The position numbers and the translations under genes are program-made. The notes beneath the pieces are model-generated. The model was not told the origin of the DNA, did no database searches, and saw only the letters and a program-made list of their open reading frames with translations. Source: Candidatus Omnitrophota bacterium (lineage in GTDB: Bacteria > Omnitrophota > Gorgyraeia > Zapsychrales > Zapsychraceae). Taken from it: a DNA stretch of 64,000 nucleotides. The DNA lies in the NCBI GenBank assembly GCA_020053475.1, contig JAGVNC010000028.1, positions 551 through 64,550 of the forward strand, written 5' to 3'. How positions within the stretch are numbered: position 1 is the stretch's first letter; each line of letters begins with the position of its first letter. Shown here piece by piece: positions 29,075-64,000 of the stretch.

Positions 29075-29150
29075 GGATTTAAATTCGAAATCCAAATCTC
29101 GAAATTCGAAACATCTGTTTCGTGCTTCCCCGGCCCGCGGCTTTTAGCCG

Positions 29151-29213: not shown

Positions 29214-29260
29214 CAAAGCGGCGGGGCGGGCGGATTTCGTATTGAGAATTTTTTTACACA

Positions 29261-29343
29261 TGGGCAAGGAGGGAGTCGAACCCTCACAGCCTTACGGCCA
29301 CAGGATTTTAAGTCCTGCGTGTATGCCATTCCACCACTTGCCC
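29261..29343 (-). tRNA. tRNA-Leu (anticodon UAA), class II with a long variable arm.
   Basis: Reverse complement GGGCAAGUGGUGGAAUGGCAUACACGCAGGACUUAAAAUCCUG...GGUUCGACUCCCUCCUUGCCCA, with anticodon loop CUUAAAA. Confidence 0.85.
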
Positions 29344-29449
29344 AGTAAAATCAGCGACCAGTGGTCAGTGCACAGTGATCAGAAAAGGAATATCGCGCAT
29401 GTTCGTATCTTTCTGGCCACTGACAACTGAACACTCTCCACTAAACTTA

Positions 29450-29521
29450 AGGCGCGAATCGGAATCGAACCGATGTATAGTGGTTTTGCAGACCACTGCC
29501 TTACCACTTGGCTATCGCGCC
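29450..29521 (-). tRNA. tRNA-Cys (anticodon GCA).
   Basis: Reverse complement GGCGCGAUAGCCAAGUGGUAAGGCAGUGGUCUGCAAAACCAC...GGUUCGAUUCCGAUUCGCGCCU, with discriminator U. Confidence 0.85.
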
Positions 29522-38344: not shown

Positions 38345-38494
38345 TCTAGATATCCAAAGGCATTGAACAATTAAAAAGGTTGTAAGTTATTAGAAAAAAA
38401 TATTTTATATTTTTATTAGATTTATCCACAGGCCCTATTACTAAGGCTACTAATTGTTCTTATTAAAATATATAAGTAGGAGGTTGTTAATAAT
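38345..38494. other. AT-rich dnaA-dnaN intergenic region with a perfect DnaA box TTATCCACA at 38422-38430, a candidate DNA-unwinding element and second origin module.
   Basis: Read directly. The 150-nt segment is very AT-rich. Confidence 0.5.
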
Positions 38495-39583
38495 ATGAAA
38501 ATTAAGTGTTCTAAGGATGTTTTAATGCAGGGAGTTCAGGCTGTCCAAAACGTTGTTTCGCCAAAAATTACATTACCTATTCTCTCTAATATTCTTTTAG
38601 AAACAAAAAAGAATACATTGTATTTAACGGCGACCGACTTAGATATTGGGATCTCTTGTGAAATTCCTGTGGAAGTAATTCTGGATGGGGCGATTACGGT
38701 TCCCGCCAAGCGATTTAGCGATATTATTAAGGAGCTGCCTTCCGGAGATGTGGTGGTCCATGCGAAGAAAAATTATCAGGTGGATATTGAAGGCAATAAT
38801 TTTCGATTTAAATTAATCGGGATGCCTAAAGACGAGTTTCCTAAATTCCCCGAGTTTAAAGAAAAAGACATTATTTCTATTGAGCAAAAAACATTAAAGG
38901 AAATGTTGCGGTTAACAAGTTTTGCCGTATCCCACGAGGAATCACGCTATGTCCTCAATGGTGTTCTTTTAGAGGTAGCGGAAAATAAAATCCGCCTCGT
39001 GGCGACCGATGGGAGACGGTTGGCTAAAATTGAAAGAGTCCTTTCTCATCCAACATCCAAAGAGATCACGGTCATCATCCCCATTAAAGCCATTCAGGAA
39101 ATCAATCGTAATTTGAAAGACGAAGGCAATGTGATATTAAGTGTGGGGCTAAATCAAGTGTTGTTTGATGTTGGAGGGATTCTGATTGCCACGCGCATTA
39201 TTGAAGGGGAATTCCCTAATTATCAACAAGTCATCCCAAAATCGCAAGCGGAGAAAATCGTCATGAACCGCCAGGATTTTTTGTCATCGATCCGCCGGGC
39301 GAACCTATTGTCCACGCCGGATTTCCAGGCGGTTAAATTCGAAGTATTTAATAATAAAATGGTGATTTCCAAAACAACACCCGAGGTCGGGGAGTCGCGA
39401 GAAGAGATCCCCATCGAATACGGAGGCTCAGAGCTGGTGGTGGGGTTTAATCCGCATTTTATGATCGATGTGTTAAAAAATATCGAAGAAGAGCAAATTC
39501 ATTTGGAGCTATTGGGGACCGATAAGCCGGGCATCATCCGCCTCAAAGATTATTTATATCTGGCCTTGCCGATGCGTATTTAA
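38495..39583 (+). CDS. dnaN: DNA polymerase III beta sliding clamp, 362 aa.
   Basis: Three-domain beta-clamp sequence with RBS AGGAGG. Confidence 0.9.
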   Translation: MKIKCSKDVLMQGVQAVQNVVSPKITLPILSNILLETKKNTLYLTATDLDIGISCEIPVEVILDGAITVPAKRFSDIIKELPSGDVVVHAKKNYQVDIEGNNFRFKLIGMPKDEFPKFPEFKEKDIISIEQKTLKEMLRLTSFAVSHEESRYVLNGVLLEVAENKIRLVATDGRRLAKIERVLSHPTSKEITVIIPIKAIQEINRNLKDEGNVILSVGLNQVLFDVGGILIATRIIEGEFPNYQQVIPKSQAEKIVMNRQDFLSSIRRANLLSTPDFQAVKFEVFNNKMVISKTTPEVGESREEIPIEYGGSELVVGFNPHFMIDVLKNIEEEQIHLELLGTDKPGIIRLKDYLYLALPMRI

Positions 39584-39602
39584 CCTCAAATGTTGCATTG
39601 CA

Positions 39603-42463
<2,861 letters not shown>

Positions 42464-42580
42464 TGAAGCCCAGAGTTATGGAACGAGCAAAGCGAGTGAA
42501 CATAACTCTGTTGGCTGAATTAACCCCCAGCGTTTTGATTCGCATAGCGAATCAGCAGGGGGTCACTTAATGAAATATCG

Positions 42581-45031
42581 ATGCGTGATTTAACAGCCAA
42601 AGAAAAAATCATTCCTGTTTATATCGAAGAAGAAATGAAGAATTCCTATCTTTCTTATTCGATGAGTGTTATCGTCGGCCGCGCCCTCCCGGATGTGCGT
42701 GACGGCGTTAAGCCCGTGCATCGGCGCATTTTATATGCCATGAAGGAGTTGAACCTCGAGTACCCTAAAACATATAAAAAATGCGCCCGTATCGTCGGGG
42801 AAGTGTTGGGGAAATATCACCCTCACGGGGATGTGGCCGTGTACGATACGCTCGTTCGTCTCGTTCAGGACTTTTCGATGCGCTATCCATTGGTCGACGG
42901 GCAAGGAAACTTCGGGTCGATCGATGGGGACGCCGCCGCGGCCATGCGCTATACAGAGGCCCGGTTAGCGGCCATTTCTAGTGAAATGCTCGCCGATATC
43001 GATAAGGAAACCGTCAATTTTGTCCCCAATTTTGATTCGACGTTAGAAGAACCGAGCATTTTGCCGGCTGTTTTACCTAACCTTCTGGTCAATGGATCCA
43101 GCGGGATTGCCGTCGGGATGGCGACCAACATGCCGCCGCATAATTTAGGCGAAGTGGCGGACGCGATCGTTCAGTCCATCGACAATCCGGAAATGACGAT
43201 TAAAGATTTAAACAAAATCATCAAAGGCCCTGACTTTCCCACGGGCGGGATCATCTGTGGAAAAGAAGGGATCGTCGAGGCGTATACGACAGGGCGCGGG
43301 AAATTGACGGTGCGCGCGAAGGCGGCCATCGAGCGGCAGAAGGGCAATAAAGACAGCATCATCGTCACGGAAATTCCTTATCAAGTCAATAAGGCGAACT
43401 TGATTGAAGCCATCGCCGGGCTGGTCCAAGAGAAGAAGGTCGAGGGGATCACGGACATTCGCGACGAGTCCGACAAAGATGGGATCCGCGTGGTGATTGA
43501 ACTTCGCCGGGATGTTGAGGCCCAGATCATCCTTAATTATTTATATAAACACACTCAGCTGGAAATGACATTCGGCATCATTAATTTAGCTTTAGTCAAT
43601 AACAGCCCCAAGATCCTGAATCTTAAGCAACTCATTGAGCTTTATATTGATCATCGCCGGCTGGTGATCCGTCGGCGGACACAGTTTGATTTGGACCGTG
43701 CCCTCAAACGCGCCCACATTTTAGAAGGCTTGCGCATCGCGATTGATCATATCAACCAAATTATCAAAACGATCCGGAGCTCCAAGAGCGCGCCGCAAGC
43801 CAAAGTCGCGTTAATGAAAGAATTTGGCCTTTCCGAAATCCAAGCGCAAGCGATTCTGGAAATGCAACTCCAGCGATTGACAGGGTTGGAACGCGACAAA
43901 ATCGAAGAAGAATATCAACAGCTCCTGAAAGACATTGAGGAATTCCGCGCGATTTTAGCTTCCGAGAAACGAATTGAAGGGATTATCAAAGATGAATTGA
44001 CGGAAATCAAGAAGAAATATGCCGACGAGCGCCGGACGGAAATTGCCGGAAAAGCCGAAGAGATTGAAGTCGAGGACTTGATCGCCGAAGAAGATATGGC
44101 CATCACCATCAGCAACGCCGGGTATATCAAGCGTTTGGCGGTGAGCGCGTATCGCAAGCAAAAGCGCGGCGGGAAAGGCATCACGGCGATGGAAACCCGT
44201 GAAGAAGATTTTGTCACGCAGGTGTTTGTGGCGTCTTCCAAAGATTATTTGCTTGTTTTTTCAACCGAGGGGATTGTTCGTTGGCTGAAGGTTTACGAAA
44301 TCCCCGTCGCGTCGCGCACGTCCAAAGGAAAAAATATCGCCAGCCTTTTATCGATGGCGAACGACGAGCAAATCAGTTCGATTGTCGCTGTTAAAGAATT
44401 TTCAGACAACACATATATCGTCATGGCAACCTCTCAGGGCCTCGCGAAGAAAACAAAATTGTCCGCATTCAGTAATCCCCGGAAAGCCGGGATCGTTGGG
44501 ATCACCTTGGAAAAGAATGACCGCCTCATCGGGACCGCTCTTAGTAATGGCAAATATGATGTCTTTTTAGCGACGAAGGCTGGTAAATCATTGCGTTTTT
44601 CCGAGAAGAATATTCGGGACATGGGCCGTGGGGCCAAAGGCGTGCGTGGGATCAAGTTAGGCAAAGGCGATGAGGTCGTTAGCATGCAGGCTTTTTCTCC
44701 GGATATTGATAAAACGGGGAGCACGTTATTAGCTGTTACTTCATTAGGGTTTGCCAAACGTTCATCATTTAATGAATATCGGACACAATCGCGCGGCGGC
44801 AAAGGGATCATCAATGTGAAGGTCACGGAACGCAACGGCCATGTCGTCGGAGTGCTTTCGGTTATGCCTGATGATGAAGTCATGACAGTCACCAAACAAG
44901 GAATGATCGTGCGCTGTCCTCCCAGTGATGTCCGTCAAACCGGACGAAGCGCTGTCGGCGTGCGCTTGATTTCCCTCGACAAAGGCGATACGGTAAGCTC
45001 GGTGGCCAATGTTGTGGCCAAAGACGAATAA
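42581..45031 (+). CDS. gyrA: DNA gyrase subunit A, 816 aa.
   Basis: Active-site region [10 protein letters not shown] and a C-terminal beta-pinwheel. Confidence 0.95.
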
Positions 45032-45428: not shown

Positions 45429-45505
45429 GACCCCATCGTCTAGCCTGGTCAGGACACAAGCTTTTCAAGCTTGCAGCGCGGGTTCAAATCCCGCTGGGGT
45501 CGCCA
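45429..45505 (+). tRNA. tRNA-Glu (anticodon UUC) with encoded CCA.
   Basis: GACCCCAUCGUCUAGCCUGGUCAGGACACAAGCUUUUCAAGCUUGCAGCGCGGGUUCAAAUCCCGCUGGGGUCGCCA, with anticodon loop UUUUCAA. Confidence 0.85.
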
Positions 45506-52632: not shown

Positions 52633-53598
52633 GTGTTAAAAAATAAAAGGGATATGACAAATATCCTGTTTTGCTTATTTTTACTTTTAGGCATTACAGG
52701 CTGCGATCAGATAAGACAAATGAAAGATTATTTTGTAAAACCGCACGAAAAGGCGGCAGAGCCTGTCGCTGTTCCTCAGGCTGTTCAACCTTCCGCAGGT
52801 GTTGTTGAGAAAAAAACCGAAGCGAAAATGGGCCCGGATACGTTGGCTAAGGTGGGCCAGTGGACCATGACCATTGGAGAATTTGAAGATCGTTTAAGCG
52901 CACTCAAAGAGGTGGCACCGGATTTCGACATTGGTAACCCGCAAAACAAAAAAGATATTTTAGAAGAGCTGATCCGCCAAGAACTTCTTGTTCAGGATGC
53001 TGAAAAATCGGGATTGGCATCGCAGAAAGATATTCAAGGCGCCATTGAGGAATTCCGCCGAACGTTGATTATCCGTCAACTGGCCCAACAGCTGACGGAA
53101 GGCGTCGAGGTTACTGATGAAGAAGCCAAAGATTTTTATGAGCGCAATCAACAAAGTATCGTCGAGCCGACGGATTGGCATTTACGCGAAATCGCATTTA
53201 GCGATCAGTTAAAAGCCAACGAAGTTTTAACGGAAATTTTAAAAGGAACGACCGATTTTGCGGAAATGGCCAAAACATATTCCACGAGCCCCTCGGCCCC
53301 TAACGGAGGCGATTTGGGATGGGTTCGTAATGTGGAAGAACTTCCTTTCCCCGAATTGGCCCAGCCATTGTTAACGTTGAAAGCCGGAGAAGTCAGCGGC
53401 GTGCTGAAGCATGAAGATAAATATTACATCGTTAAAGTGGAAGAAATTAAGGGTGGAGAAGCGATTCCTTTTGAAAAAGTGAAAGACCAGATTACGTCAA
53501 ATCAATTACTGCGCAAGCAGCAAGAAATCCTCATCAATTATATTAATAAGTTGCGCGAAGGTGTCTCTGTCGAAGTTAATGAAAGTTTGTTAAAATAA
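52633..53598 (+). CDS. PpiC-type peptidyl-prolyl isomerase (SurA/PrsA-like) lipoprotein, about 321 aa. GTG start with RBS AAGGAG. The ORF track starts 72 nt upstream.
   Basis: Lipobox LLGITGC and the PPIase domain GDLGWVRNVEELPFPELAQPL. Confidence 0.65.
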   Translation: MLKNKRDMTNILFCLFLLLGITGCDQIRQMKDYFVKPHEKAAEPVAVPQAVQPSAGVVEKKTEAKMGPDTLAKVGQWTMTIGEFEDRLSALKEVAPDFDIGNPQNKKDILEELIRQELLVQDAEKSGLASQKDIQGAIEEFRRTLIIRQLAQQLTEGVEVTDEEAKDFYERNQQSIVEPTDWHLREIAFSDQLKANEVLTEILKGTTDFAEMAKTYSTSPSAPNGGDLGWVRNVEELPFPELAQPLLTLKAGEVSGVLKHEDKYYIVKVEEIKGGEAIPFEKVKDQITSNQLLRKQQEILINYINKLREGVSVEVNESLLK

Positions 53599-53677: not shown

Positions 53678-54505
53678 ATGAATTTAGAGAATAAAAAACA
53701 AATCGCGACATTGTTGTTAGCGGTGGCACTTGGATTAGCCGCGGCTGTATTTACCAGCGATTATGTGACAAAGAGCATTAATAAACAAACGACCGCGTTG
53801 GCCAAAAATTATGACAAAAAGACGGAAGAGATCAAGAAAGAACTGGCCCTGACACAGAAGGCGTTGGATCAGTTGGCCAAAAATCAAAAAGTCTTGGCCG
53901 ACAGGCCTGCCCAGGTTGCCGCGGGAGGGCCGGAAAGGCAAATGACACCAGCGGGTGTCCTCTCCGCGCGAACACCTCCGGGGAAAAGAGCATTGACCAT
54001 TAATGTCGACACCCTTTCCGCCGTTGGAGGATTATTAAATCCCGGAGACCGCGTCGATATTATCGCTGATTTACAAATTCCCGATTCCCGTGATCCCAAA
54101 GCGGAACCGGATAAAGTCACATCCGTCTTGTTTCAAGATGTCCTTGTCCTTGCCGTAGGAACGAATTTTCAGCCGGTGACAACGGCCGAAGGGTATGATG
54201 CGCGTGCAAAAGCACGTTCGTTACAGATCACCCTGGCCCTAGACCCGGAAGAGGCTTCTTTAATCACGTTTTCCCAGAAATATGGCAAAATGCAACTAAC
54301 GTTGCGCCCACCGTCGGATGAGGGCGTGCAAAATATGGAAGTGGCTTCCTGGGATTCATTGGCCGATTTTGTCTTGGAAAGGCAAGGAACGGAGCTGATT
54401 GTCCCTAGGTCAAAGGCAAGAATTCAAACAGATGATACAGGGAAAAAAGAAACCAAAGACACAGAAGCCTTTATTCAAATTTTTAAGGGAGGCAAAGAGC
54501 AATAA
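53678..54505 (+). CDS. cpaB: Flp pilus assembly protein CpaB/RcpC (SAF domain), 275 aa.
   Basis: N-terminal TM helix and the SAF-like LTINVDTLSAVGGLLNPGDRVDIIADL. Confidence 0.75.
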   Translation: MNLENKKQIATLLLAVALGLAAAVFTSDYVTKSINKQTTALAKNYDKKTEEIKKELALTQKALDQLAKNQKVLADRPAQVAAGGPERQMTPAGVLSARTPPGKRALTINVDTLSAVGGLLNPGDRVDIIADLQIPDSRDPKAEPDKVTSVLFQDVLVLAVGTNFQPVTTAEGYDARAKARSLQITLALDPEEASLITFSQKYGKMQLTLRPPSDEGVQNMEVASWDSLADFVLERQGTELIVPRSKARIQTDDTGKKETKDTEAFIQIFKGGKEQ

Positions 54506-54508
54506 TCG

Positions 54509-56332
54509 ATGGAAACTAAACGAGCGTTTAAAACATTGGCTTTACTGAAGATGAGCGTTGTGATGGGCGCATTTTTCCTTTTGGGTTTATCCGCACCGGC
54601 CCAGGCTCGCGTTGATGCCACAACGAACGAAGTCAACCTTCTTATCGGGGAATTAGAAACCATCGACGTTAAATCATTAACGCGCCTTTCGATTACGGAC
54701 CCCAAAGTGGTTGACATTGTTGAGGCCAAAGAAAGCGAGATTCTGATTATTGCCAAAGCCATCGGGCAAAGCGCTTTATTTGTTTGGGATGAAAACGGGA
54801 AACGCACTGTTCTCGTTAACGTGGCGGCCCAAAACTTAGGATTAATCTCGCAGCGGCTTGAAAAACTTTTTTCCTCGGTCCATATCGACAATGTTACCGT
54901 TGAAGTTAATGGGAAAGAGGGAAAAGTTGTCTTGACCGGTCAAATTTTCGAAGATAAAAAAGATCAGTTTGATCAGGTCATTGCCCCCTTCAATCGAGAC
55001 ATCATTAATCTCGTCAAGGTAGAAAAATCCGAAGATTTAATTGAGGTGGATATCCAGATTACGGAATTAACGACAACCTTGACGAAAGCCATCGGCATCG
55101 ACTGGGCATCTTCCAGCACGGGGCCCTCGATCTCTGGGTTGGGCGCCGGCGGCCTTTTGGCGCCAACATTTTCTGAAAATGTGCCCAGCGTTGATGGATC
55201 AGTGGAAGATCTTTTTAAGATTGGGAATTTTCAACGCACGTATCAGTTGATTGCCATGATTAACGCCTTATTAGAAGAAGGGAAGGCGCGGATCCTCTCT
55301 AAACCGAAGCTTGTTGTCGTCAGCGGAGAAGAAGCCAGTTTTAATGTCGGAGGAGAAATTCCGATCCGTACGACAACCACATCACAAGGTTCTACCCAAG
55401 AAAATGTGACATTTAAGAAATTTGGGATAGGGATGACGATTACGCCTACAATTAAAAAAGGGAAAATTGATTTATTGATGGAAGTTGAAGTTAGCGATAT
55501 TGATTCTGCCAACAAGGTCGGGGACAATGTGGCCTTTACGACACGCAATGCCCAAACAAGATTATATTTAGACAACGGCCAGCCCATCGTCATTGCAGGA
55601 TTGATAAAGAAGCGCGAGTCGGAATTGGTCAAAAAAGTTCCATTTTTAGGAGAAATTCCTATCATTGGGATTTTGTTTAGAAGCAAGTCGACTCCGTCAG
55701 CCAATGAAGACCAGGAACTAGTTATTTCTCTGACGCCGTTAATCCTCAATTCAGAATATAATTCTGCGATGATATCGAAAATTACTCCCCCATTGGAAGT
55801 AGCCGATGAGCCTCAAAAAGAACCAATGGACGATGATGATGTGGTTGCGGATGATGCTGATGATGCTGATGATGTGGATGCCGATGCGGATTTGGATGTG
55901 GATGAAACTGAAGAACCGTTGAGTTGGGATGACGAAACAATGCAAATGGATCCTAGTCCTGCGGTGGCGGCAAATGAAAGTCAATCTTCTACACAAATTA
56001 CTCCTGAAGAAAAATCTTCAGAGAATGATGGCTTTCCTGCGGGGATGAAAGATTATATTCAGGCGATTCAACAGCAGATTTCTAGCACGATCCAATATCC
56101 TCCCGAAGCGGAAGAATATGGTTGGGAGGGAACTGTCAGGCTAGGATTGCTCATCTTACACGACGGGACATTAGCGCTTGCTTCCATCAAGGAGTCCTCA
56201 GGGCATAAAATTTTTGACGAATACGCTCTTAATACGGCCAAAGAATTGGCCCCTTATTTAAGTTTCCCTCCTGAAACAGACCTGCAGGAATTAAATGTTA
56301 CGATTCCCATTGTGTATACCGTGGCCCGATAA
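54509..56332 (+). CDS. cpaC: Tad-type secretin (CpaC/RcpA family), 607 aa, with a polyacidic linker and a C-terminal TonB_C-like domain.
   Basis: Signal peptide and a secretin core (ARILSKPKLVVVSGEEASFNVGGEIPI...LTPLILNS). The acidic run DDDDVVADDADDADDVDADADLDVDETEE is followed by YPPEAEEYGWEGTVRLGLLILHDGTL...SSGHKIFDEYALNTAKE, which matches the TonB C-terminal consensus. Confidence 0.75.
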   Translation: METKRAFKTLALLKMSVVMGAFFLLGLSAPAQARVDATTNEVNLLIGELETIDVKSLTRLSITDPKVVDIVEAKESEILIIAKAIGQSALFVWDENGKRTVLVNVAAQNLGLISQRLEKLFSSVHIDNVTVEVNGKEGKVVLTGQIFEDKKDQFDQVIAPFNRDIINLVKVEKSEDLIEVDIQITELTTTLTKAIGIDWASSSTGPSISGLGAGGLLAPTFSENVPSVDGSVEDLFKIGNFQRTYQLIAMINALLEEGKARILSKPKLVVVSGEEASFNVGGEIPIRTTTTSQGSTQENVTFKKFGIGMTITPTIKKGKIDLLMEVEVSDIDSANKVGDNVAFTTRNAQTRLYLDNGQPIVIAGLIKKRESELVKKVPFLGEIPIIGILFRSKSTPSANEDQELVISLTPLILNSEYNSAMISKITPPLEVADEPQKEPMDDDDVVADDADDADDVDADADLDVDETEEPLSWDDETMQMDPSPAVAANESQSSTQITPEEKSSENDGFPAGMKDYIQAIQQQISSTIQYPPEAEEYGWEGTVRLGLLILHDGTLALASIKESSGHKIFDEYALNTAKELAPYLSFPPETDLQELNVTIPIVYTVAR

Positions 56333-56444
56333 TTCGGATAAATGGGAATTTTCCAATTAGGCAAAAATAAGAAATTATGTTATGATGAAAAACACAGTTT
56401 TTTATCTTTTAAGCCGAACCATTGAATAAGACATCAATCATCTG

Positions 56445-58607
56445 ATGCAGGCAAAAACGATAACAATTTTTAGCAATAAAGGCGGTGTCGGCAAAACATT
56501 TGTCACCGTCAATACCGGCACAGCCATGGCCGTGGCTAACCACAAAGTCTTGATTTTAGATTTTGACTTTCAGGCAGGTCAAGATATGGCGCGGATGTTG
56601 AACATCGCCCCCAAACATGCCTTGGTCGATATTTTCCCCGTCTTGGAATCTTCCGATGATCCGCAGTTGATCTACAAATACGTTTCCGTTCATTCCAGCG
56701 GCGTGCATTTTTTGCCAGCCGTAAAAAATACCCGGCAGATCGGGCATATCACGCCCGACAACATCAAGCCTTTCTTAAAGAAAATAGCCTCCGCTTATGA
56801 TTTTATTCTTATTGACGCGGGAAAATCTTTTAGTGAAACGTTGATAACGGTTTTGGATTATTCCAACCTGATCCTGTTGGTCGCGACGCCGGATATTTTG
56901 GCGGTTTATAACATTAAGTGGTGTTTAGACGTTTTGCAGAGCCTGCAGTTTCCTAACAAAATGGTTAAGCTCGTATTAAACCGTTCCGAAAGCCGCGGGA
57001 GCGTGGCTTGGCAAGAGGTCCGGTCAGCGTTGCCTTGTGAAATTCTGACTCATATCCCTTCCGACGGAAAAACAGTCGGGATGGCTTTAAACCGGGGAAT
57101 TCCTTGCGTGGTCGATGCGCCTAAAAGCCGTGTGGCTGAATCGTTCTTTCGCCTGGCTTCACTTTTCGAAAAAGATGATATGTTTGTTGCGGCGACGGAG
57201 GTTGAGAAACAAAGGACAACGGATGAATTTGCCAAACCCGGGGCTTTTTGGGAAAAATTCGGCATCACCCAAGCCATGGGAATGTCGTTGCCGGGGATTT
57301 CTTTTGCCACGGAAGAAGATGAGGTCATCGTGTTAAAAAGGAAAATTCACGAGAAGCTCGTCAAGCGGCTCAATTTAGACGGGATTACGCCCGAAGCGTT
57401 AAACGATCCGATTGCCGCCCAAGGGATCAAGAGAAATGCCGAAGAGGTCGTGGCCAATATGTTGACGGAAGAGGCGGGCGGGATGCTGGCCGCGCACGAG
57501 GAACGCGTTCGGCTGGTCAAGGATATTGTCAATGAAGCGTTAGGCCTCGGCCCGCTGGAAGATTTTTTGGCGGATCCGGACGTGACCGATATTATGGTCA
57601 ACAGCCGTGATCAGATTTATGTGGAAAAAAGCGGCAAACTTATTTTGACGAATAAAAAATTTATTTCTGATGAAAAAATGCGGTCCGTCATTGAGCGTAT
57701 CATTGCGCCCTTGGGCCGTCGCATCGATGAATCGACACCCATGGTGGATGCGCGCCTTCCTGACGGATCCCGGATCAATGCCATTATCCCCCCTTTGTCC
57801 TTAAATGGCCCGATGATTACCATTCGTAAATTCGGCCAGGAACGTTTGACCGCTGAAGATCTTCAGCACCGATTTCATTCGCTCAATCAAGCCATGCGCG
57901 ATTTTTTGCAAGCTTGTGTTTTAGGCAGAAAGAACATCATTGTTTCCGGTGGAACCGGCGCCGGGAAAACGACATTATTGAATGTCATTTCGGAATTTAT
58001 TCCAGACAACGAACGGTTGATTACCATTGAGGACGCCGCCGAATTGAAGCTGAAAAAAAGCCATTGGGCGAGATTAGAGTCGCGCCCGTCGAACATCGAG
58101 GGCCGCGGACAGGTCACGATCCGCGATTTGTTTATTAACAGTTTGCGGATGCGCCCGGACAGGATTGTCATCGGCGAATGCCGCGGGGCGGAGGTGTTGG
58201 ACATGCTTCAGGCCATGAACACGGGCCACGACGGATCATTAACAACGCTGCACGCCAACTCCACCAAGGACGTTTTAGTCCGGATGCATTCGATGATCCT
58301 GTTAAGCGGGATTGAATTGCCTGTGCGCGCCATCAATGAAATGGTGGCCTCGGCCATTGATATCATTGTCCATGTCGCTCGGTTTTCTGACGGAACCCGG
58401 AAAATAACGGGAATTTCTGAAGTGACGGGGCTCAGTAAAGATTTTCAGTGCGAGCTTGAGGACGTTTTTGTTTTCAAGCAAACAGGCCTCGACAGCGATG
58501 GCAAAATTTTGGGGAGTTATCAGCCGACAGGATATATTCCCATTTGCTATGAAGATTTCGCGACGCGCGGATTACCGATCGATCGAAGTATTTTCTTGAA
58601 GGCTTAA
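56445..58607 (+). CDS. Fused TadZ/CpaE-like ParA-family ATPase (N-terminal) and TadA/CpaF secretion ATPase (C-terminal), 720 aa.
   Basis: N-terminal deviant Walker A FSNKGGVGKTFVTVN. C-terminal GGTGAGKTTLLN plus T2SSE-family motifs (His box TLHANS). Confidence 0.75.
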   Translation: MQAKTITIFSNKGGVGKTFVTVNTGTAMAVANHKVLILDFDFQAGQDMARMLNIAPKHALVDIFPVLESSDDPQLIYKYVSVHSSGVHFLPAVKNTRQIGHITPDNIKPFLKKIASAYDFILIDAGKSFSETLITVLDYSNLILLVATPDILAVYNIKWCLDVLQSLQFPNKMVKLVLNRSESRGSVAWQEVRSALPCEILTHIPSDGKTVGMALNRGIPCVVDAPKSRVAESFFRLASLFEKDDMFVAATEVEKQRTTDEFAKPGAFWEKFGITQAMGMSLPGISFATEEDEVIVLKRKIHEKLVKRLNLDGITPEALNDPIAAQGIKRNAEEVVANMLTEEAGGMLAAHEERVRLVKDIVNEALGLGPLEDFLADPDVTDIMVNSRDQIYVEKSGKLILTNKKFISDEKMRSVIERIIAPLGRRIDESTPMVDARLPDGSRINAIIPPLSLNGPMITIRKFGQERLTAEDLQHRFHSLNQAMRDFLQACVLGRKNIIVSGGTGAGKTTLLNVISEFIPDNERLITIEDAAELKLKKSHWARLESRPSNIEGRGQVTIRDLFINSLRMRPDRIVIGECRGAEVLDMLQAMNTGHDGSLTTLHANSTKDVLVRMHSMILLSGIELPVRAINEMVASAIDIIVHVARFSDGTRKITGISEVTGLSKDFQCELEDVFVFKQTGLDSDGKILGSYQPTGYIPICYEDFATRGLPIDRSIFLKA

Positions 58608-58615
58608 CCCCATCA

Positions 58616-58960
58616 ATGCCGCAGATTTTTAATAAAACAAAGAATACACTCGTTGCTTCCCAGGCCAAAATGGCCCAAAATTTCCTTGCCCGCATGGTCG
58701 GCCTTCTCAACCGGTCTTCGTTGTCCCCCCAAGAAGCCCTGATTATTCCCCATTGCCAATCGATTCATATGTTCTTTATGCGTTTTCCCATTGATGTTAT
58801 TTTCGTGGATAGCGAAAATAAAGTTGTGCATCTTCTAAAGAATATCCGGCCTTTTCAGCTCAGTCCCATCATTTTTTCTTCCTTCTATGCCATCGAAATG
58901 GCTGTGGGCGGCATTGAAACGTCGCGCACAGCGGTTGGCGATTTCCTCTTGCTAGAATAA
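58616..58960 (+). CDS. DUF192 (COG1430) protein, 114 aa.
   Basis: IHMFFMRFPIDVIFVD is the characteristic DUF192 core. Confidence 0.55.
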   Translation: MPQIFNKTKNTLVASQAKMAQNFLARMVGLLNRSSLSPQEALIIPHCQSIHMFFMRFPIDVIFVDSENKVVHLLKNIRPFQLSPIIFSSFYAIEMAVGGIETSRTAVGDFLLLE

Positions 58961-59041
58961 TCCTTCGGTAAAGTGATCGATGGACATTAAAATTGTGCTA
59001 TACTGTATACGAAATGTCCAATCTGAAATAGTTAGGCTCCC

Positions 59042-60898
59042 ATGGGTGTTGTTTATAAACTAAAAGACGAAGTTCTTCAATTCATTATCCAGCAAAAAAA
59101 GGACATCCCTTCCTTGGGCGTGCGCCAATTGGCCGGCCTTGTCAGCACCAAATTCCACCTTCAAGTTTCGAAATCTTCCGTTAGCAATGTTTTAAAAGGC
59201 GCTCATTTAAGCAGCGGGGTGGGAAGAAGGGCCACGCAAGACCGGAAACAAAAAAAATTTAAAATCCCGACGCAGAAGAAGAAAGAGATTTCGGAGCACA
59301 TGCAAAAAATGGCCCTGGGCCGGGAGCCGGTGCTTTCCAAGGCCACGATCAGCGAAAAACCCGTTGAACACATGGCGCCCTCAGCTGAACCTGTCGAAGA
59401 GGTTCTGGCGAATGAGGATGAAAGCGAGATTTTGGAGAAAGAAATTCTTGTTGTCCCGCCAGTCCCGTCGGAGAAATCCCCAGGAATTGAAGCGGCCGAT
59501 CCCTTGAGGGAAGTTTCTTCTCTCCCGCCAACGCAATCTTCCAAAGATGTTTTTTATCAGCATGTTCGGGAGATTCAAGCGCGGCGCGTCGCGCAACAGG
59601 GGAAGCTTTATCAAGGGCTGGGATGTATTTTTCTAAAAGCCGCAGAATGGGAAGGGAATCAACACCCTTGGGATCAATTATTCGCTCAAGAATCAGGAGC
59701 GCTTTCGGATAATTTTTCGGGTACATTTTCCGCCCTCGCGATCGAAGCGTTTTTAACCAAAGAAGGGGCGAGCCGTAAGGACATGTTCAAAGAAGGAATT
59801 TTTGTCCTTAATGATTTAGACCCTGCAGCGCCACAGGCACAACATCGTTTTGATCAAATCGCCGGACTTGTCATCCCTGAGCCTGTTGTTTGGGAATACA
59901 CTGACCATCTTCAACAATTTTTTGCTCAAGCAGACCTGTTTCGTTGGGAATTAGAAGATGCAACGGAATTTTATACCGATCCAGGAGCGACTTTTTTAGA
60001 TGAGCAGGTTTCTTCGGGCGGGCTCGCCTTTCCTTTAAACAAGGCCTTGACGATTTTGTCCCGAGAGATCATTAGCAATAATCATCCGCTGATTTTATGC
60101 CAAGCCCCCGGCCAGCAGGCCATTGACGCGTGTTTCGATGATTTTTTAGGCGCGTTCGAAGGCCACTCGAATAAATCCATTGTTGCGCTCACCGTGCTCA
60201 ATGAGCACCAAGAAGAAGTCGCGATGTTTAACATCATTCCTCGTCGACGCCGAAATTTTATTTGCGGGCTGTGGCCGCACCTGAAGGAATTTAAAGAATT
60301 AACAAAGACCGTCAAGTGGGCCGCGAAACAACCCTTTTATGTTGAGCATGCGGATCGAATTGTCTATTCTGCCGCCACCCAAACAGATTATTTTGCGTCA
60401 CATTTATCGGAGAACCCCCGGCCCATGCGCTTGTTAACGCTTTGGAACGATGAACAAGCAGAGCCCTGCATGAGCATTCTGTGTAATGACATGGACATCG
60501 AGCCGCAAAAAATCCTGGATTTATATACAACGCGATGGCCTTATCTGGAAAGGCCTGCCTTGTTTAAAGAGGCTGGGGAGCCGCTACCTTTGATCCAAAA
60601 TGCGGATCAACATCATTCATTAGAATCGTTGGCGGGAAAATTTGGGGACATCCTCCACCAATACTGTTTAAGAAAGTTCTTTCCTTCATATCGGCGCTTA
60701 CCTTCGGCATCCTTAATTGAAAATATTTATGAAATGCCGGGATATGTGATCAAAACCCCTCAATCTTATCAAATTTTGTTAAAAACAAAGGGGAATGCGG
60801 AAAATCGCTTAGAAGAGCTTAAGGATGCTGTTCAGCGGCTAAATGAACACGGCATTGAGACAGGGGACGGGAAGAAGGTTTCAATCCTTATAATATAA
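59042..60898 (+). CDS. Large hypothetical protein, 618 aa. It has an N-terminal HTH-like segment, a Pro/Glu/Lys-rich linker and a C-terminal region containing the motif YTTRWPYLERP. An upstream TGcTATACT extended -10 lies inside the palindrome GGACATT-N24-AATGTCC.
   Basis: Read directly. No confident family was assigned. Confidence 0.45.
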   Translation: MGVVYKLKDEVLQFIIQQKKDIPSLGVRQLAGLVSTKFHLQVSKSSVSNVLKGAHLSSGVGRRATQDRKQKKFKIPTQKKKEISEHMQKMALGREPVLSKATISEKPVEHMAPSAEPVEEVLANEDESEILEKEILVVPPVPSEKSPGIEAADPLREVSSLPPTQSSKDVFYQHVREIQARRVAQQGKLYQGLGCIFLKAAEWEGNQHPWDQLFAQESGALSDNFSGTFSALAIEAFLTKEGASRKDMFKEGIFVLNDLDPAAPQAQHRFDQIAGLVIPEPVVWEYTDHLQQFFAQADLFRWELEDATEFYTDPGATFLDEQVSSGGLAFPLNKALTILSREIISNNHPLILCQAPGQQAIDACFDDFLGAFEGHSNKSIVALTVLNEHQEEVAMFNIIPRRRRNFICGLWPHLKEFKELTKTVKWAAKQPFYVEHADRIVYSAATQTDYFASHLSENPRPMRLLTLWNDEQAEPCMSILCNDMDIEPQKILDLYTTRWPYLERPALFKEAGEPLPLIQNADQHHSLESLAGKFGDILHQYCLRKFFPSYRRLPSASLIENIYEMPGYVIKTPQSYQILLKTKGNAENRLEELKDAVQRLNEHGIETGDGKKVSILII

Positions 60899-60923
60899 AT
60901 AGATAGTATTTATTAAACCATGC

Positions 60924-60953
60924 TTGACACTAAATAAAAAAATATGTTATACT
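60924..60953 (+). promoter_or_regulatory. Promoter of the Flp pilin gene array: -35 TTGACA (60924-60929), 18-nt spacer, -10 TATACT (60948-60953). It is followed by a structured leader of about 300 nt.
   Basis: Read directly. Confidence 0.55.
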
Positions 60954-61256
60954 CCTTCTATATCATAAGCCACGGGAAAGTTAGTAAAGAAAGAGGCAAT
61001 CTAGGACATTTGTAAATGTCTGAAACATCAATGGATATGATAAGCCTCCACGATTCCTGTGGGGGTTTTTGTTTGTAGGCCGTTCAACAATTTTTAAAAT
61101 GCTTATTACACCGCAAGGTGTCTTAATCCTTGATGGAACTACTTAAGTCAGGGAGGCAAAGCCCTAACAAGGTTTTACTATAGAGGCCCTTAAGGCTTCA
61201 TCCTCATTGTTTGAGGAGGGGTAACAATCATCTGTTCAACACATAAGGACAAGGCG

Positions 61257-61427
61257 ATGAAAGGCTTTTTAAGAATAATGGACCATTTAGACCGCAAAGG
61301 TCAAAACTTGATCGAATATGCCTTCGTCGCCTCTATCGTGATCGCTGCTGTTTTTGTCATGAGTACTTATGTGTTTCGTTCTGTCCAATCCACGCAACAG
61401 ATGATTCAAAAAGAAGCAATCAAGTAA
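61257..61427 (+). CDS. flp: Flp-family prepilin, 56 aa (leader MKGFLRIMDHLDRKG, then QNLIEY).
   Basis: G/XXXXEY processing motif followed by a 20-aa hydrophobic segment. Confidence 0.75.
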   Translation: MKGFLRIMDHLDRKGQNLIEYAFVASIVIAAVFVMSTYVFRSVQSTQQMIQKEAIK

Positions 61428-61511
61428 ACCCTTTAAAGAAATTCTTTAAACGGGGGACTCTTTGTCGTTAGAGCATCAACAAAAGAGAGAATATCTTCAA
61501 GGAGGAATCTA

Positions 61512-61742
61512 ATGTTAAGACGTAACATAAAAACGCCCGCGCTAAAGAAAAAGAAGGGGCAATCGACGCTGGAATATATCATCCTTGTAGCTGGCGTCAT
61601 TGCTGTGTTGATTGTTTTCTTGGCGCCCGGCGGTATTTTCCAGACATCGTTTAATTCGATCCTGTCATCTGGGACGCAAGGCGGAGTGCAGCTGGCGAAC
61701 GCGTTAAAGCTTTCGCACGGGGGCAACGCCGATGCATTTTAA
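61512..61742 (+). CDS. Flp-type prepilin paralog, 76 aa.
   Basis: KKKKG-QSTLEY motif plus a hydrophobic segment. RBS AAGGAGG. Confidence 0.7.
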   Translation: MLRRNIKTPALKKKKGQSTLEYIILVAGVIAVLIVFLAPGGIFQTSFNSILSSGTQGGVQLANALKLSHGGNADAF

Positions 61743-61762
61743 CATTGTGGAGGGAAAAACAA

Positions 61763-62122
61763 ATGTTTAGAAAATTGTTAAAAAATAAAAAAGCGCAAAA
61801 TACCCTCGAGTATGCGATCCTGATCTCTTTGGTCGTCGCGGGGATTGTTGCCATGCAAACGTATGCCCAACGAGCCTTGCAAGCGAGAGTTCGTGACGCG
61901 AGCTCGTATTTGGCGAATCAAACCGGAGCCTTAGGGAATACGCTTCAGTATGAACCTTATTATCTAAGTACCAACTACGCAATCGAGCGGGACGAATCAG
62001 AAACCCAAATACTGGATAACGTCACAACCTTACAACAGGTGAATTCTACTCGTAAACGAGCTGCGGGTGGGTTCCAGAGTTCTGATTACAGTACGGCATT
62101 CGGTATTGTCAATGGCATCTAA
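61763..62122 (+). CDS. Flp-type prepilin paralog with an extended C-terminal domain, about 119 aa. ATG start after RBS GGAGGG. The ORF track starts at TTG 61745.
   Basis: KNKKA-QNTLEY motif. The C-terminal region is paralogous to the 62656 gene (shared YEPYY). Confidence 0.65.
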   Translation: MFRKLLKNKKAQNTLEYAILISLVVAGIVAMQTYAQRALQARVRDASSYLANQTGALGNTLQYEPYYLSTNYAIERDESETQILDNVTTLQQVNSTRKRAAGGFQSSDYSTAFGIVNGI

Positions 62123-62188
62123 GGAAAAGCAAGCCAAGCAGCTTGTTTTCCTAACATTGAGCCATTTTAAATTGAGGAGGATCATTCA

Positions 62189-62518
62189 ATGTTGAGGCTT
62201 TTGAATAAACGAAGAAAAAAAGGGCAAAGTACGCTGGAATATGCCATTCTGATTATTATCATCCTCGGTGCGCTGATGTCCATCCAGATATATATCAAAC
62301 GCGGGATTCAAGGAAGACTGAAAAGCGCGACAGATGATATCGGGGACCAGTTCTCTCCGGGGAATACCAATGTAGTGAAAATTATGCACACCGTCAGTAA
62401 TTCTGTCGATACGTTTGCGTTCGGTAAATCCAAATCCACATTAACAGGTAAGGGGGAAATAACGACCGAACAAATGAATTCTGACATCATGATTGTTAAT
62501 CAGGAATTCTGGCAATAA
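62189..62518 (+). CDS. Flp-type prepilin paralog with an extended C-terminal domain, 109 aa.
   Basis: RRKKG-QSTLEY motif. Paralogous to the 63437 gene (shared YIKRGIQGRLK...GDQFSP). RBS GAGGAGG. Confidence 0.7.
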   Translation: MLRLLNKRRKKGQSTLEYAILIIIILGALMSIQIYIKRGIQGRLKSATDDIGDQFSPGNTNVVKIMHTVSNSVDTFAFGKSKSTLTGKGEITTEQMNSDIMIVNQEFWQ

Positions 62519-62655
62519 GCCCGGCTTTTGATGACAAGATATGGCTTGCTTGGGAGAGAGGTTCTTTTCGGGCAGGCCATATTTTTTTAGCGGGCTCGCA
62601 TTCGCAAGAACGTTAGAACGTTATCATGAGAATGCGGGTTTAATCTTTCTTCATT

Positions 62656-63036
62656 ATGTTAAAGCTTCTAACAAATAGACGCGCTCAGGCTATGATGGGC
62701 GAATATGTCCTTGTTTTTGTGATTGTTTTAAGCGTCATGGGGGCGATGACGGTTTATTTCAAACGCGCCATCCAGGCCCGCATGTACGACGCCCGTAACG
62801 CAATGGTCGGGACCGTCTATGAACGGACGAACGAGATCAATTATGTGGGGGAAATCGGGGTCGCGTACGAGCCTTATTACACCAACACCACGTCATCTGT
62901 GCAGAGGACATCAGAATCAGAAACAAGGTTGAAGCCTGGGCTGACGACGGGGATTTTTAGTAAAACAATTAACGAAACGACAGCTGTTCAGACAGAAAGC
63001 ACGACCGCTCCGCCTAAAGATGTGGACTTGTTTTAA
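62656..63036 (+). CDS. Flp-type prepilin-like paralog, 126 aa, with the variant motif RRAQAMMGEY.
   Basis: Hydrophobic segment after the GEY motif, and a Thr/Ser-rich C-terminus. Confidence 0.55.
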   Translation: MLKLLTNRRAQAMMGEYVLVFVIVLSVMGAMTVYFKRAIQARMYDARNAMVGTVYERTNEINYVGEIGVAYEPYYTNTTSSVQRTSESETRLKPGLTTGIFSKTINETTAVQTESTTAPPKDVDLF

Positions 63037-63037
63037 T

Positions 63038-63391
63038 ATGTTGAGAAAAAGATCATTTCGCCATCAGAGGAAGACACAAAACGCCCAATCCATGCTTGAA
63101 TATGTCATTGTCATTGGCGTTATCGTCACGGTTCTGTTCACGATGAACCCTTTGCTGAAGCGCAGCATCCAAGGGCTTATTAAATTCGTCGCGGACCAAG
63201 TTGGTAATCAAGAGAACGCGGAACAAGATTTCGATGAGATGGGGCATTTACAATCTCAACATGTCAAAACGCAGGCGGACATTCATCGGACAGAAATTGA
63301 TTTTTTGCGCGTGATGAATTATATTTCCGATGAAGTGGTTGTTTCGGAAAGTAACACGCAGATTAATGCGGGATTTACTCAGACCGATTAA
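63038..63391 (+). CDS. Flp-type prepilin-like paralog, about 117 aa, with motif KTQNAQSMLEY. The start is uncertain; an alternative ATG lies at 63020.
   Basis: Motif plus a hydrophobic segment. Confidence 0.5.
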   Translation: MLRKRSFRHQRKTQNAQSMLEYVIVIGVIVTVLFTMNPLLKRSIQGLIKFVADQVGNQENAEQDFDEMGHLQSQHVKTQADIHRTEIDFLRVMNYISDEVVVSESNTQINAGFTQTD

Positions 63392-63436
63392 ATGGTTAAA
63401 ATTTGCTGTGGCATGGATGATAGGGAGACTTAGCAT

Positions 63437-63758
63437 GAAACTGATTGGCCGCAAAAAACGAAGAGGGCAAAGCGTCATCGAATACGTCATTCTGATCACT
63501 ATCTTATTGGGTGCTTTCTTGGCCATTGGAACTTATTTTAAGCGCGGCGTTCAGGGGCGCTGGAAAGAGGCTGTCGACGGATTCGGTGATCAATACGATC
63601 CCCGCGCTGCCGACACGAACATTAAACACAGCATTTTGTCAAATACCAATACGACGATTTTGGCGATGAATAGTGTCGGCGGCTTCTGGACATCGCGCAC
63701 TGATGAATCAAAAACGACTGAAAAAAGGACGGGATATATGTCGTCGGGAGCGTATTGA
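63437..63758 (+). CDS. Flp-type prepilin paralog, about 107 aa. Start MKLIGRKKRRG-QSVIEY with RBS GGGAG.
   Basis: G/XXXXEY motif. Paralogous to the 62189 gene. Confidence 0.65.
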
Positions 63759-63880
63759 TTGAGGTTACAGAAGGTTACGAGAGGGTACGGGATGTTTCGT
63801 AAAGCCATCAGCCCTCACGCAACTTCATGTAACATTACGCAACCTTCCGCAACATCATGTACCCCGCGTAACGTTTAAAT

Positions 63881-64000
63881 ATGTCTTTTTTTAAACAACA
63901 TAAGTTCGCTTCTACCCGCGCCCAAACCGCCATCGAATTGGCGATTTTTGGCGCCATTTTAATCTTTGTGGTCGGTCTTATTGTGAATTCAGCCATGAAC
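63881..64000 (+). CDS. TadE/Flp-like prepilin, 5' partial; the gene continues past the window end.
   Basis: MSFFKQHKFASTRAQTAIELAIFGAILIFVVGLIV, a TadE-like N-terminal motif. Confidence 0.5.
   Translation, partial: MSFFKQHKFASTRAQTAIELAIFGAILIFVVGLIVNSAMN

Follow-up and report, generated by a model that had tools for sequence, protein, structure and literature searches.

A row of co-directional genes near the end of a 64,000-nucleotide stretch of Candidatus Omnitrophota DNA (GenBank assembly GCA_020053475.1, contig JAGVNC010000028.1; the whole stretch is referred to here as the window) raises the question of whether a pilus locus of unusual order and content encodes a new kind of machine or a variant of a known one. 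A preliminary description of positions 53678-64000, made from the letters of the sequence, had reported a Tad/Flp-like locus with a fused ATPase, a secretin carrying a TonB_C tail, a DUF192 gene, a 618-aa orphan and at least eight prepilin genes, with neither tadB/tadC platform genes nor a tadV peptidase, and had suggested a possibly undescribed subtype of type IVc-like machinery. The Omnitrophota, ultra-small bacteria that are abundant and uncultured, are thought to be predators or parasites, and a Tad pilus is among the few candidate organelles for their contact with a host.

The answer reached here, held with high confidence, is that the region forms the first ~10.3 kb (the front two-thirds) of an ~18-kb Tad (type IVc / Flp) pilus cassette. 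It is highly probable that this cassette, conserved across Candidatus Omnitrophota, represents a known machine in a lineage-specific form and not a new kind of machine. The full order comprises, in all likelihood, a PpiC-like lipoprotein, RcpC, a secretin::TonB_C protein, a TadZ-like::TadA fusion, DUF192, a helix-turn-helix (HTH) protein, a strong promoter, and Flp with six mid-size pilin-like genes; the 3' part very likely adds a trio of TadE-like, TadF-like and giant TadG-like genes, one more pilin-like gene, TadB and TadC. Together, the components are a complete, recognisable Tad system, and the remaining novelty is a set of conserved lineage-specific additions to it.

Gene order, platform genes and conservation

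The listing of open reading frames (ORFs) and their translations place a Tad-type gene row at 53678-64000, all of it on the + strand (Table 1). Each gene of the order claimed beforehand (cpaB, secretin, fusion, DUF192, 618-aa ORF, prepilins) was recovered where the preliminary description had put it, and the departure of this order from the canonical flp-tadV-rcpCAB-tadZABCDEFG was borne out. By family assignment, the predicted products include a CpaF-type motor, RcpC, a Tad-type secretin and a Flp-type pilin, to which relatives add a TadB/TadC platform.

No T2SSF gene was identified in the window among the scanned ORFs (~20 mostly shorter ORFs lay outside the Pfam scan), and the four window ORFs with at least five predicted membrane helices are the ammonium transporter and Nqr subunits. 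A related locus, L008 (GCA_030648475.1), shares 96.6% DNA identity with window 59138-63999 over 4869 bp and continues with genes for a 514-aa TadE-like, a 99-aa TadE-like, a 1184-aa TadG-like and a 115-aa pilin-like protein, followed by TadB (286 aa, T2SSF E 8e-17) and TadC (290 aa, T2SSF according to precomputed annotation). The first 40 residues of the 514-aa protein are those of the window ORF at 63881 except for two substitutions. The 99-aa protein matches Pfam TadE at E 0.006, below the cut-off; TadE/TadG-like N-termini can be recognised by eye in the 514-aa and 1184-aa proteins, which have no Pfam match. The cassette ends alike in L005 (T2SSF E 4.6e-17 and 7e-14) and L007, and tadB and tadC also close it in L030, L032, L038 and others, with T2SSF matches ranging over E 1e-14 to 1e-17; among the metagenome loci reaching far enough, TadB was detected in 10 and TadC in 5.

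Since L008 and other relatives carry tadB/tadC at the end of the cassette, the lack of platform genes is an artefact of where the window ends. Of the absences noted earlier for the 10 kb, that of tadB/tadC is therefore not supported as a property of the cassette, whereas a peptidase was found in none of the related loci examined either. Completion of a standard tad operon downstream had been named as one part of the outcome that would speak against a new subtype: the platform genes are indeed supplied, but the operon is still non-standard.

The search for a prepilin peptidase gave no Peptidase_A24 gene in the window (same set of scanned ORFs, with the same ~20 mostly shorter ones outside it), none in the gene tables of L001-L008, and none in any of 80 metagenome loci, where the probe was one distant sequence and its sensitivity low. 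That the locus lacks a dedicated prepilin peptidase is therefore taken as real. In addition, no gene for a TadD pilotin or for RcpB was found in the cassette, the sole lipoprotein there being the PpiC-like peptidyl-prolyl isomerase (PPIase).

The 80 metagenome loci were gathered by way of the N-terminal part of the 618-aa protein, which is conserved, and were scored with probes derived from the window. Wherever the flank suffices, the order is kept: PpiC, RcpC, secretin, TonB_C, ParA-CpaF, DUF192, 618-aa protein, pilins, TadE-like, giant protein, TadB, TadC, with four to nine prepilin motifs per locus. In four related loci (L001-L004, ATPases at 68-76% identity) the same order extends to the upstream housekeeping genes, namely those for a 2-hydroxyacid dehydrogenase, a GST, a CN hydrolase, a malate/lactate dehydrogenase and the PpiC rotamase. 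The gene cluster is a conserved cassette, a single one of ~18 kb and of fixed order in all of the >80 loci recovered through the HTH-protein gene.

Table 1. Features of the Tad cassette within the window (a slash in a prepilin motif marks the cleavage position)
Feature	Position	Strand	Size or residues	Basis and remarks
PpiC/SurA-like peptidyl-prolyl isomerase, predicted lipoprotein	52654..53598	+		Pfam Rotamase_2 E 4e-19, SurA_N_3
RcpC/CpaB alignment protein	53678..54505	+		Pfam RcpC E 7.6e-25 at aa 94-210
Tad-type secretin (RcpA/CpaC-like) with C-terminal TonB_C	54509..56332	+	607 aa	Pfam
Secretin: Sec signal peptide	54509-54607	+		by eye
Secretin: T2SS-T3SS_pil_N	54626-54817	+	aa 40-103	Pfam
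Secretin: core	55265-55747	+	aa 253-413	Pfam Secretin E 5e-42
Secretin: acidic linker	55829-55918	+	30 residues	more than half Asp/Glu
Secretin: TonB_C, full-length domain	56090-56320	+	aa 528-604	Pfam E 2.4e-13
TadZA fusion ATPase	56445..58607	+	720 aa	profile and PDB comparison
TadZA: MinD/ParA-like domain	56445-57209	+	aa 1-255	deviant Walker A KGGVGKT at 56478-56498, residues 12-18
TadZA: linker	57210-57440	+		
TadZA: CpaF/TadA motor domain	57441-58541	+	aa 333-699	Walker A GGTGAGKT at 57948-57971
DUF192 (COG1430/UPF0127) small protein	58616..58960	+		Pfam DUF192 E 1.5e-17
618-aa lineage-specific cytoplasmic protein	59042..60898	+	618 aa	no family match
618-aa protein: homeodomain/Tc3-like HTH			aa 9-53	
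618-aa protein: disordered acidic/proline-rich linker			aa 59-162	
618-aa protein: helical and alpha/beta domains			after aa 162	weakly Tn5-transposase-like
Near-consensus sigma-70-type promoter	60924..60953	+		TTGACA, 18 nt, TG-n-TATACT; 11/12 consensus positions, extended -10
Leader	60954..61256	+	~300 nt	two hairpins
Leader: terminator-like hairpin with T-run	61042-61068	+		
Flp-type major prepilin	61257..61427	+	56 aa	leader MKGFLRIMDHLDRKG / QNLIEYAFVAS..., motif G/xxxxEY and hydrophobic helix
Prepilin paralogue 2	61512..61742	+	76 aa	KKKKG / QSTLEYIILVAG; Pfam Class_IIIsignal E 9.4e-7, 29 bits vs 23.7
Prepilin paralogue 3	61763..62122	+	119 aa	KNKKA / QNTLEYAILIS; likely start codon 61763
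Prepilin paralogue 4	62189..62518	+	109 aa	RRKKG / QSTLEYAILII
Prepilin paralogue 5	62656..63036	+	126 aa	TNRRA / QAMMGEYVLVF, Glu one residue shifted
Prepilin paralogue 6	63038..63391	+	117 aa	KTQNA / QSMLEYVIVIG; likely start codon 63038
Prepilin paralogue 7	63435..63758	+	107 aa	KKRRG / QSVIEYVILIT; likely start codon 63435
TadE-like large minor pilin, 5' end	63881..64000	+	first 40 codons	MSFFKQHKFASTRA / QTAIELAIFGAIL..., runs past window end; likely start codon (pilin 8) 63881

The fused ATPase

The claimed fusion of TadZ and TadA was confirmed, in that a MinD/ParA-type and a CpaF-type domain share one ORF. The motor domain matches 8rkd and 9e24, two structures of CpaF from Caulobacter, at E 2e-111, as against ~1e-35 for archaeal GspE2 and FlaI and also for VirB11; its top NCBIfam match is the TadA-family model TIGR03819 at E 5.5e-98, yet under the cut-off of that model. 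The MinD/ParA domain begins at residue 1 of the fusion, which leaves no N-terminal receiver-like domain. Its top matches are MinD models and structures, of which archaeal MinD scores best, and no match described as TadZ or CpaE was found among the top 25 NCBIfam families or the PDB matches at E <=1.

The single open frame for ParA and CpaF was found in all 40 metagenome loci that could be scored for it. In a search with the fusion, all 120 matches listed had E 0.0, and the 117 with a reported identity (67-100%) were 678-774 aa long and held both domains; every organism-named protein among the matches listed belongs to Omnitrophica/Omnitrophota. Furthermore, a profile-free search returned the fused architecture, with end-to-end alignment at 38-52% identity, in 65 of the best 150 representatives (50%-identity clusters), and the organism names found on two of ten looked-up fused representatives were Bdellovibrionales and Bacteriovoracia (39-42% identity). 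Since the fused ATPase is widespread and occurs also in the loci L009 (Bdellovibrionales) and L011, the fusion alone is neither new nor specific to the phylum. A quick neighbour-joining tree, built on 346 columns of the CpaF domain from 136 sequences, intermingles fused with unfused ATPases, and a single origin of the fusion is therefore not claimed.

Other arrangements of related motors were also seen. Three of the matches listed in the fusion search (P0044, P0074, P0084; ~1150 aa) hold tandem CpaF domains without MinD/ParA. Four proteins of 950-1600 aa (P0044, P0135, P0136, P0138) carry two to four tandem CpaF-type domains and no MinD domain, P0044 having three such domains at 53% identity to the motor domain of the window; such multi-CpaF proteins would represent concatenated Tad motors. 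In L004, a gene for a 461-aa PilZ-T2SSE ATPase (322-1707) lies a few kb 5' of the cassette and has no counterpart in the window; its product could be a pilus ATPase responsive to cyclic di-GMP (c-di-GMP).

The secretin and its periplasmic partners

The best solved relative of the secretin is 8jvb (E 1.4e-36), annotated merely as 'Type II and III secretion system protein', and the second best is the Tad secretin RcpA of P. aeruginosa (8odn, E 3.8e-26). The TonB_C tail, claimed beforehand, is a clear Pfam match at E 2.4e-13, and the TonB structure 6sly matches it at E 1e-4; the definition of the RcpA/CpaC-type secretin family does not include such a tail. Secretin core and TonB_C lie in a single open frame in 34 of 34 metagenome loci, and the tail is present in all Omnitrophota loci, even in the distant L010 (52% ATPase identity), which retains only PpiC-RcpC-secretin::TonB_C-TadZA. 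The secretins of L009 and L011 lack it.

In at least one Omnitrophota metagenome-assembled genome (L012, 7574-9218) the TonB_C module is a separate 113-aa ORF without signal peptide, and the 423-aa secretin ahead of it ends in a real stop codon 31 nt before. When homologues of the tail were sought, 16 matches were obtained, all of them short (64-170 aa), TonB_C-only and thus uninformative about secretin::TonB_C fusions outside the phylum. Several 96-aa TonB_C-only proteins at 60-67% identity (among P0290-P0296) were seen on other contigs; these and several other TonB_C matches of 96-113 aa may be true splits of this kind, pseudogenes or artefacts of gene calling. Nothing relevant on secretins with a TonB_C tail was found in the literature.

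RcpC scores 94.2 bits against the equivalog model TIGR03177 pilus_cpaB (cut-off 71), the match covering model positions 104-259 only. An N-terminal membrane anchor is predicted (one transmembrane segment at aa 7). No SAF domain was detected in the window protein with Pfam or NCBIfam, and a Lys/Glu/Gln-rich, coiled-coil-like segment occupies ~aa 30-90 instead; L009 (Bdellovibrionales) and L010 each encode an RcpC that does have SAF.

The PpiC-like protein has a lipobox that can be read from the sequence (leader ...LLGITG/C), and its gene lies directly 5' of rcpC in every relative with enough flank, L010 included. The gene, not part of the preliminary description, belongs with the others to one conserved module, for which its product is a candidate periplasmic chaperone.

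Pilin genes and tip proteins

A regular-expression scan of all six frames of the 64 kb for the prepilin motif (basic leader, [GA]/Q-x3-4-E-[YL], hydrophobic helix) gave exactly 8 occurrences, all on the + strand at 61299-63920, each opening a consecutive ORF. Eight such motifs in tandem are far beyond chance, and they correspond to seven prepilin genes in full length and the beginning of one more, as the preliminary description had it; the likely start codons of pilins 3, 6, 7 and 8 given in Table 1 correct that description. The paralogues share 24-37% mutual identity, with invariant Gln+1, Glu and Tyr. Only its motif assigns the first to Flp: Pfam Flp_Fap gives no match to the copy in the window and a weak one to the orthologue in L004. 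Pilins 4 and 7 match Class_IIIsignal weakly, and pilin 7 also weakly matches DUF7287, a family of unknown function. When paralogue 4 was modelled with AlphaFold2 (AF2) from an alignment of seven paralogue sequences, the mean confidence (pLDDT) was 54 and only a long N-terminal helix, aa 10-52, was modelled, most confidently at ~aa 11-30 and with pLDDT ~50 past aa 40; the rest stayed below 50.

The TadG-like protein beyond the window (1184-1304 aa; L008 6665-10219, L005 10001-13915) is very rich in Cys and without Pfam match, and the same holds for the 115-120-aa pilin-like protein encoded after it in L008 and L005. Both are probably disulfide-stabilised extracellular parts of the tip.

Promoter, leader and the genes ahead of the pilins

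The promoter at 60924-60953 is the best site in the region. It is unchanged in five relatives despite otherwise diverged spacers and was found in 29 of the 60 loci with an extractable spacer; it is predicted to act as the promoter of the pilin genes. The leader behind it contains, besides the terminator-like hairpin, a second small conserved hairpin (ACACC-GCAA-GGTGT), the pairing of which is kept by compensatory changes in L007. The leader has no Rfam match at the gathering score or at E <=1, and its single-sequence fold z-score of -1.6 is not significantly stable. An unannotated attenuator or small RNA ahead of the flp gene is possible.

The DUF192 protein has no signal peptide recognisable by eye, and its gene lies 5' of the 618-aa gene in 59 of 61 metagenome loci with enough flank. 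DUF192 also adjoins tad genes in Firmicutes, at the end of tad operons of Erysipelotrichales and Helcococcus (PMC12786226). As the same domain was noted independently in these tad operons, a general, uncharacterised accessory role of DUF192 in Tad systems is suggested; the recurrent association points to an accessory factor so far unrecognised.

The 618-aa ORF, which has no Pfam and no NCBIfam match, is proposed to encode a DNA-binding regulator. In another locus (L088), the match extends over just the first ~93 residues, the HTH part, with no other cassette genes nearby; the HTH module may thus occur in another context too.

Relation to known Tad systems

Tad systems have been described for this phylum before. 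According to the passages retrieved from Seymour et al. 2023 (PMC10066038), Tad complexes were reported in Omnitrophota by means of TXSScan, with TadB, TadC and RcpA detected in most Velamenicoccia, and in TadB/TadC/RcpA phylogenies the Omnitrophota TadB/C group with Bdellovibrionales. The same passages give type IVa pilus systems as nearly universal in the phylum, and describe for Candidatus Velamenicoccus archaeovorus LiM a 'complete Tad complex' of 17.4 kb (CP019384.1 12382-29832), expressed in co-culture with Methanosaeta. As the LiM locus (17.4 kb, origin-proximal) matches the cassette described here (~18 kb, ~17 kb from dnaA) in size and position, the two are very probably orthologous. 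The retrieved passages treat the system as a standard Tad complex and mention no TonB_C tail, DUF192, HTH protein, PpiC lipoprotein or expanded pilin set, and the words 'fusion' and 'secretin' are absent from the main text.

The closest published counterpart of the ATPase is the 'atypical TadZA fusion' of Bdellovibrio bacteriovorus HD100, which lacks the receiver-like domain of TadZ; the tad loci of this bacterium have no TadV, and the type IVa peptidase PilD cleaves Flp1 (bioRxiv 10.64898/2026.07.08.737194). Interaction with the polarity hub RomR is a further trait that goes with the Bdellovibrio-type fusion. Common to both organisms are the receiver-less ParA/MinD-linker-TadA polypeptide, the absence of TadV and the core order rcpC-rcpA-tadZA. 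There are also differences: the Bdellovibrionales locus L009 (Flp, A24 peptidase, RcpC, secretin, TadZA, TadB) has a plain secretin without TonB_C, no DUF192, HTH protein or PpiC, a Peptidase_A24 gene, and TadB directly after TadZA, and Bdellovibrio tad genes are scattered over several loci, whereas those of the window stand in one cassette. L011, another locus with a fused ATPase, keeps the canonical tad order.

With canonical Tad/Cpa systems the cassette shares the CpaF/TadA motor, RcpC/CpaB, an RcpA/CpaC-type secretin with pil_N, the Flp motif G/xxxxEY and, in relatives, TadB/TadC and TadE/F/G-like proteins. Taking A. actinomycetemcomitans (flp-tadV-rcpCAB-tadZABCDEFG), Caulobacter (pilA-cpaA-K) and the RcpA-TadD pair of P. 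aeruginosa (PMC10499894) as references, it differs in the receiver-less TadZ fused to TadA; in having no TadV, RcpB or TadD pilotin; in the TonB_C-tailed secretin and an RcpC without detectable SAF; in the added DUF192, HTH protein and PpiC lipoprotein; and in about 11 pilin-like genes, with the pilins in mid-cluster between tadA and tadB.

A further point of comparison is the Kil system of Myxococcus xanthus, a Tad-derived machine of a predator (PMC8460266, PMC12075869). In its KilLMN tips, a TadE-like protein with a C-terminal extension is joined by a short TadF-like partner and by a TadG-like protein that is very large and rich in Cys, and there are extra Flp-like minor pilins (PMC12075869). 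Such a tip is a heterotrimer of three minor pilins, the large one of which exposes a variable domain. The L008 trio (514/99/1184 aa) and the extra pilins match this pattern in size and order only. The tip1-4 genes were restricted to Myxococcota in the published survey (PMC12075869), and separate gene clusters, the peptidase KilA and a T3SS* partner are features of the Kil system's own.

The occurrence of Tad in Omnitrophota, the TadZA fusion and tad loci without peptidase (the last two in Bdellovibrio) are thus already published. No description was found of the TonB_C tail that the secretin carries, of DUF192 and the HTH/transposase-like protein as obligatory members, of the lipoprotein PPIase conserved alongside them, or of the set of ~eleven pilin-like genes.

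Proposed working and alternative readings

If the cassette works as its families suggest, the CpaF-type domain would drive the TadB/TadC platform and so polymerise, and probably retract, the 56-aa Flp pilin, as CpaF does. The MinD/ParA-like domain would position or couple the motor, as proposed for the Bdellovibrio TadZA, and RcpC would bridge the platform and the outer-membrane secretin. The TonB_C tail, on its acidic linker, would probably anchor or dock the secretin in the periplasm; it may replace pilotin-type partners such as TadD or RcpB, perhaps helped by the PpiC lipoprotein, and could in that case reveal a pilotin-independent way of anchoring secretins. The prepilins ([GA]/Q, Glu at +5/+6) would depend for their cleavage on a peptidase gene outside the locus, most plausibly that of a type IVa PilD, as in Bdellovibrio. 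The six mid-size pilins and the downstream trio may form priming or tip complexes like KilLMN, which would attach to host or prey cells; the expanded set of pilin and tip genes parallels the 'adaptable tips' of predatory Myxococcus. Finally, the HTH protein, together with the conserved promoter and leader, may control pilin expression.

Several points weigh against the assignment to Tad or against parts of it. The N-terminal ATPase domain scores nearer to MinD than to any TadZ/CpaE model or structure in the profile and PDB comparisons, and its name 'TadZ' was given by position and analogy. Most of the pilin-like ORFs have no significant Pfam match, and the AF2 model of paralogue 4 is confident for the N-terminal helix alone. 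The window itself does not contain tadB/tadC, and that this genome has them is presumed from the 96.6%-identical contig; exact 31-mer scans of metagenome and genome collections for the end of the window gave no match. Neither the window nor the related loci yielded a prepilin peptidase, so that prepilin processing is a presumption as well. The separate TonB_C ORF of L012, lacking a signal peptide, fits poorly with a purely periplasmic role, and what TonB_C, DUF192, PpiC and the HTH protein are said to do is proposed throughout.

A more far-reaching proposal, put forward tentatively and less likely than not, is that the Omnitrophota cassette forms a distinct monophyletic Tad subtype. It would have a secretin anchored or docked by its own TonB_C module in place of a pilotin, an obligatory lipoprotein PPIase, DUF192 and domesticated transposase-like HTH protein, and ~eleven pilin-like proteins, among them a tip protein of >1100 aa, that would build a specialised host-attachment organelle of ultra-small epibiotic or predatory cells; a conserved structured leader RNA would gate pilin expression.

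Among the alternatives, the one that survives best, improbable as it is, makes the product a short pseudopilus used mainly for secretion or contact-dependent killing, akin to the type II secretion system or Kil, that exports or presents the giant Cys-rich proteins and is not in the first place a long adhesive Flp pilus. The many minor-pilin-like genes and the 1184-1304-aa TadG-like protein would suit such a device, Kil-type Tad systems of predators kill on contact through tip complexes (PMC12075869), and the Omnitrophota literature, in the passages retrieved, ties secretion and pilus loci to a predatory or parasitic lifestyle (PMC10066038). However, a typical 56-aa Flp major pilin comes first behind the strong conserved promoter, and the cassette showed no genes for effectors, T3SS-like components or FHA proteins. 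The pseudopilus departs from the Tad pilus preferred here in output, not in machinery.

It is very improbable that the locus represents an undescribed type IVc-like subtype truly devoid of platform proteins and peptidase and working unlike Tad. The preliminary suggestion leaned in this direction, and the window itself, with its non-canonical order, its extra genes and no T2SSF or Peptidase_A24 gene identified in 64 kb, is compatible with it, as is the absence of a peptidase from related loci. But the same cassette closes with tadB and tadC in L008 and in ten or more further loci, the match of the ATPase to CpaF reaches E 2e-111, RcpC exceeds the cut-off of the CpaB equivalog, and Bdellovibrio provides a documented case of tad loci that lack a peptidase and rely on PilD (bioRxiv 10.64898/2026.07.08.737194). 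The idea of possibly undescribed machinery is accordingly largely set aside in favour of the Tad assignment: the ATPase is of CpaF/TadA type, the secretin is close to Tad secretins, and the outline of the system has been published (PMC10066038, as retrieved; bioRxiv 10.64898/2026.07.08.737194).

A narrower doubt concerns the 618-aa ORF, which might be an insertion sequence or transposase that landed in the tad operon. The Tc3/homeodomain-like HTH and the weak structural similarity to Tn5 transposase are what would be expected of it, and its probability is nevertheless slight. The gene keeps its place, with DUF192 on one side and the pilin promoter on the other, in 80 of 80 metagenome loci, at identities down to 25-34%; the invariant columns of the alignment contain no conserved D-D-E triad; the spacers around the gene, of just 81 bp and 25 bp, are all that is left for transposon ends; and the homologues found bear Omnitrophota names only. 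The ORF does not qualify as a DDE transposase or insertion sequence, of which a conserved catalytic D-D-E triad, terminal inverted repeats and mobility, with variable location, would be expected.

Least probable of all is an archaeal-type (Epd/Aap-like) pilus gained by horizontal transfer: pilin 2 passes the Class_IIIsignal cut-off, pilins 4 and 7 match it weakly and the MinD-like domain scores best against archaeal MinD, but class III signal peptides and Flp share the motif, so that this match does not discriminate, the motor is far closer to bacterial CpaF (2e-111) than to archaeal GspE2/FlaI (~1e-35), and RcpC and the secretin are parts of diderm bacteria.

Genomic setting

The genes dnaA, dnaN, gyrB and gyrA lie at window positions 36992-45031. 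The GC skew turns from negative to positive near 36-38 kb, beside an AT-rich stretch at 34-36 kb (GC 0.38), and the chromosomal replication origin is probably situated within the window. Given these genes and the change of sign in the skew, the cassette would start ~17 kb from the origin, on the leading strand.

Elsewhere in the window, tRNA genes occur at 29000-29521 (-) and 45429-45502 (+), and a 6S RNA (RF00013) match at 22558-22743 (-) scores 46.5 bits, just over the gathering score of 46.4. Positions 2528-11667 (-) hold an ammonium transporter, a GAF-GAF-ANTAR regulator and a complete-looking Na+-NQR (nqrA-F) operon, which amounts to respiratory equipment in a genome from a lineage considered host-dependent.

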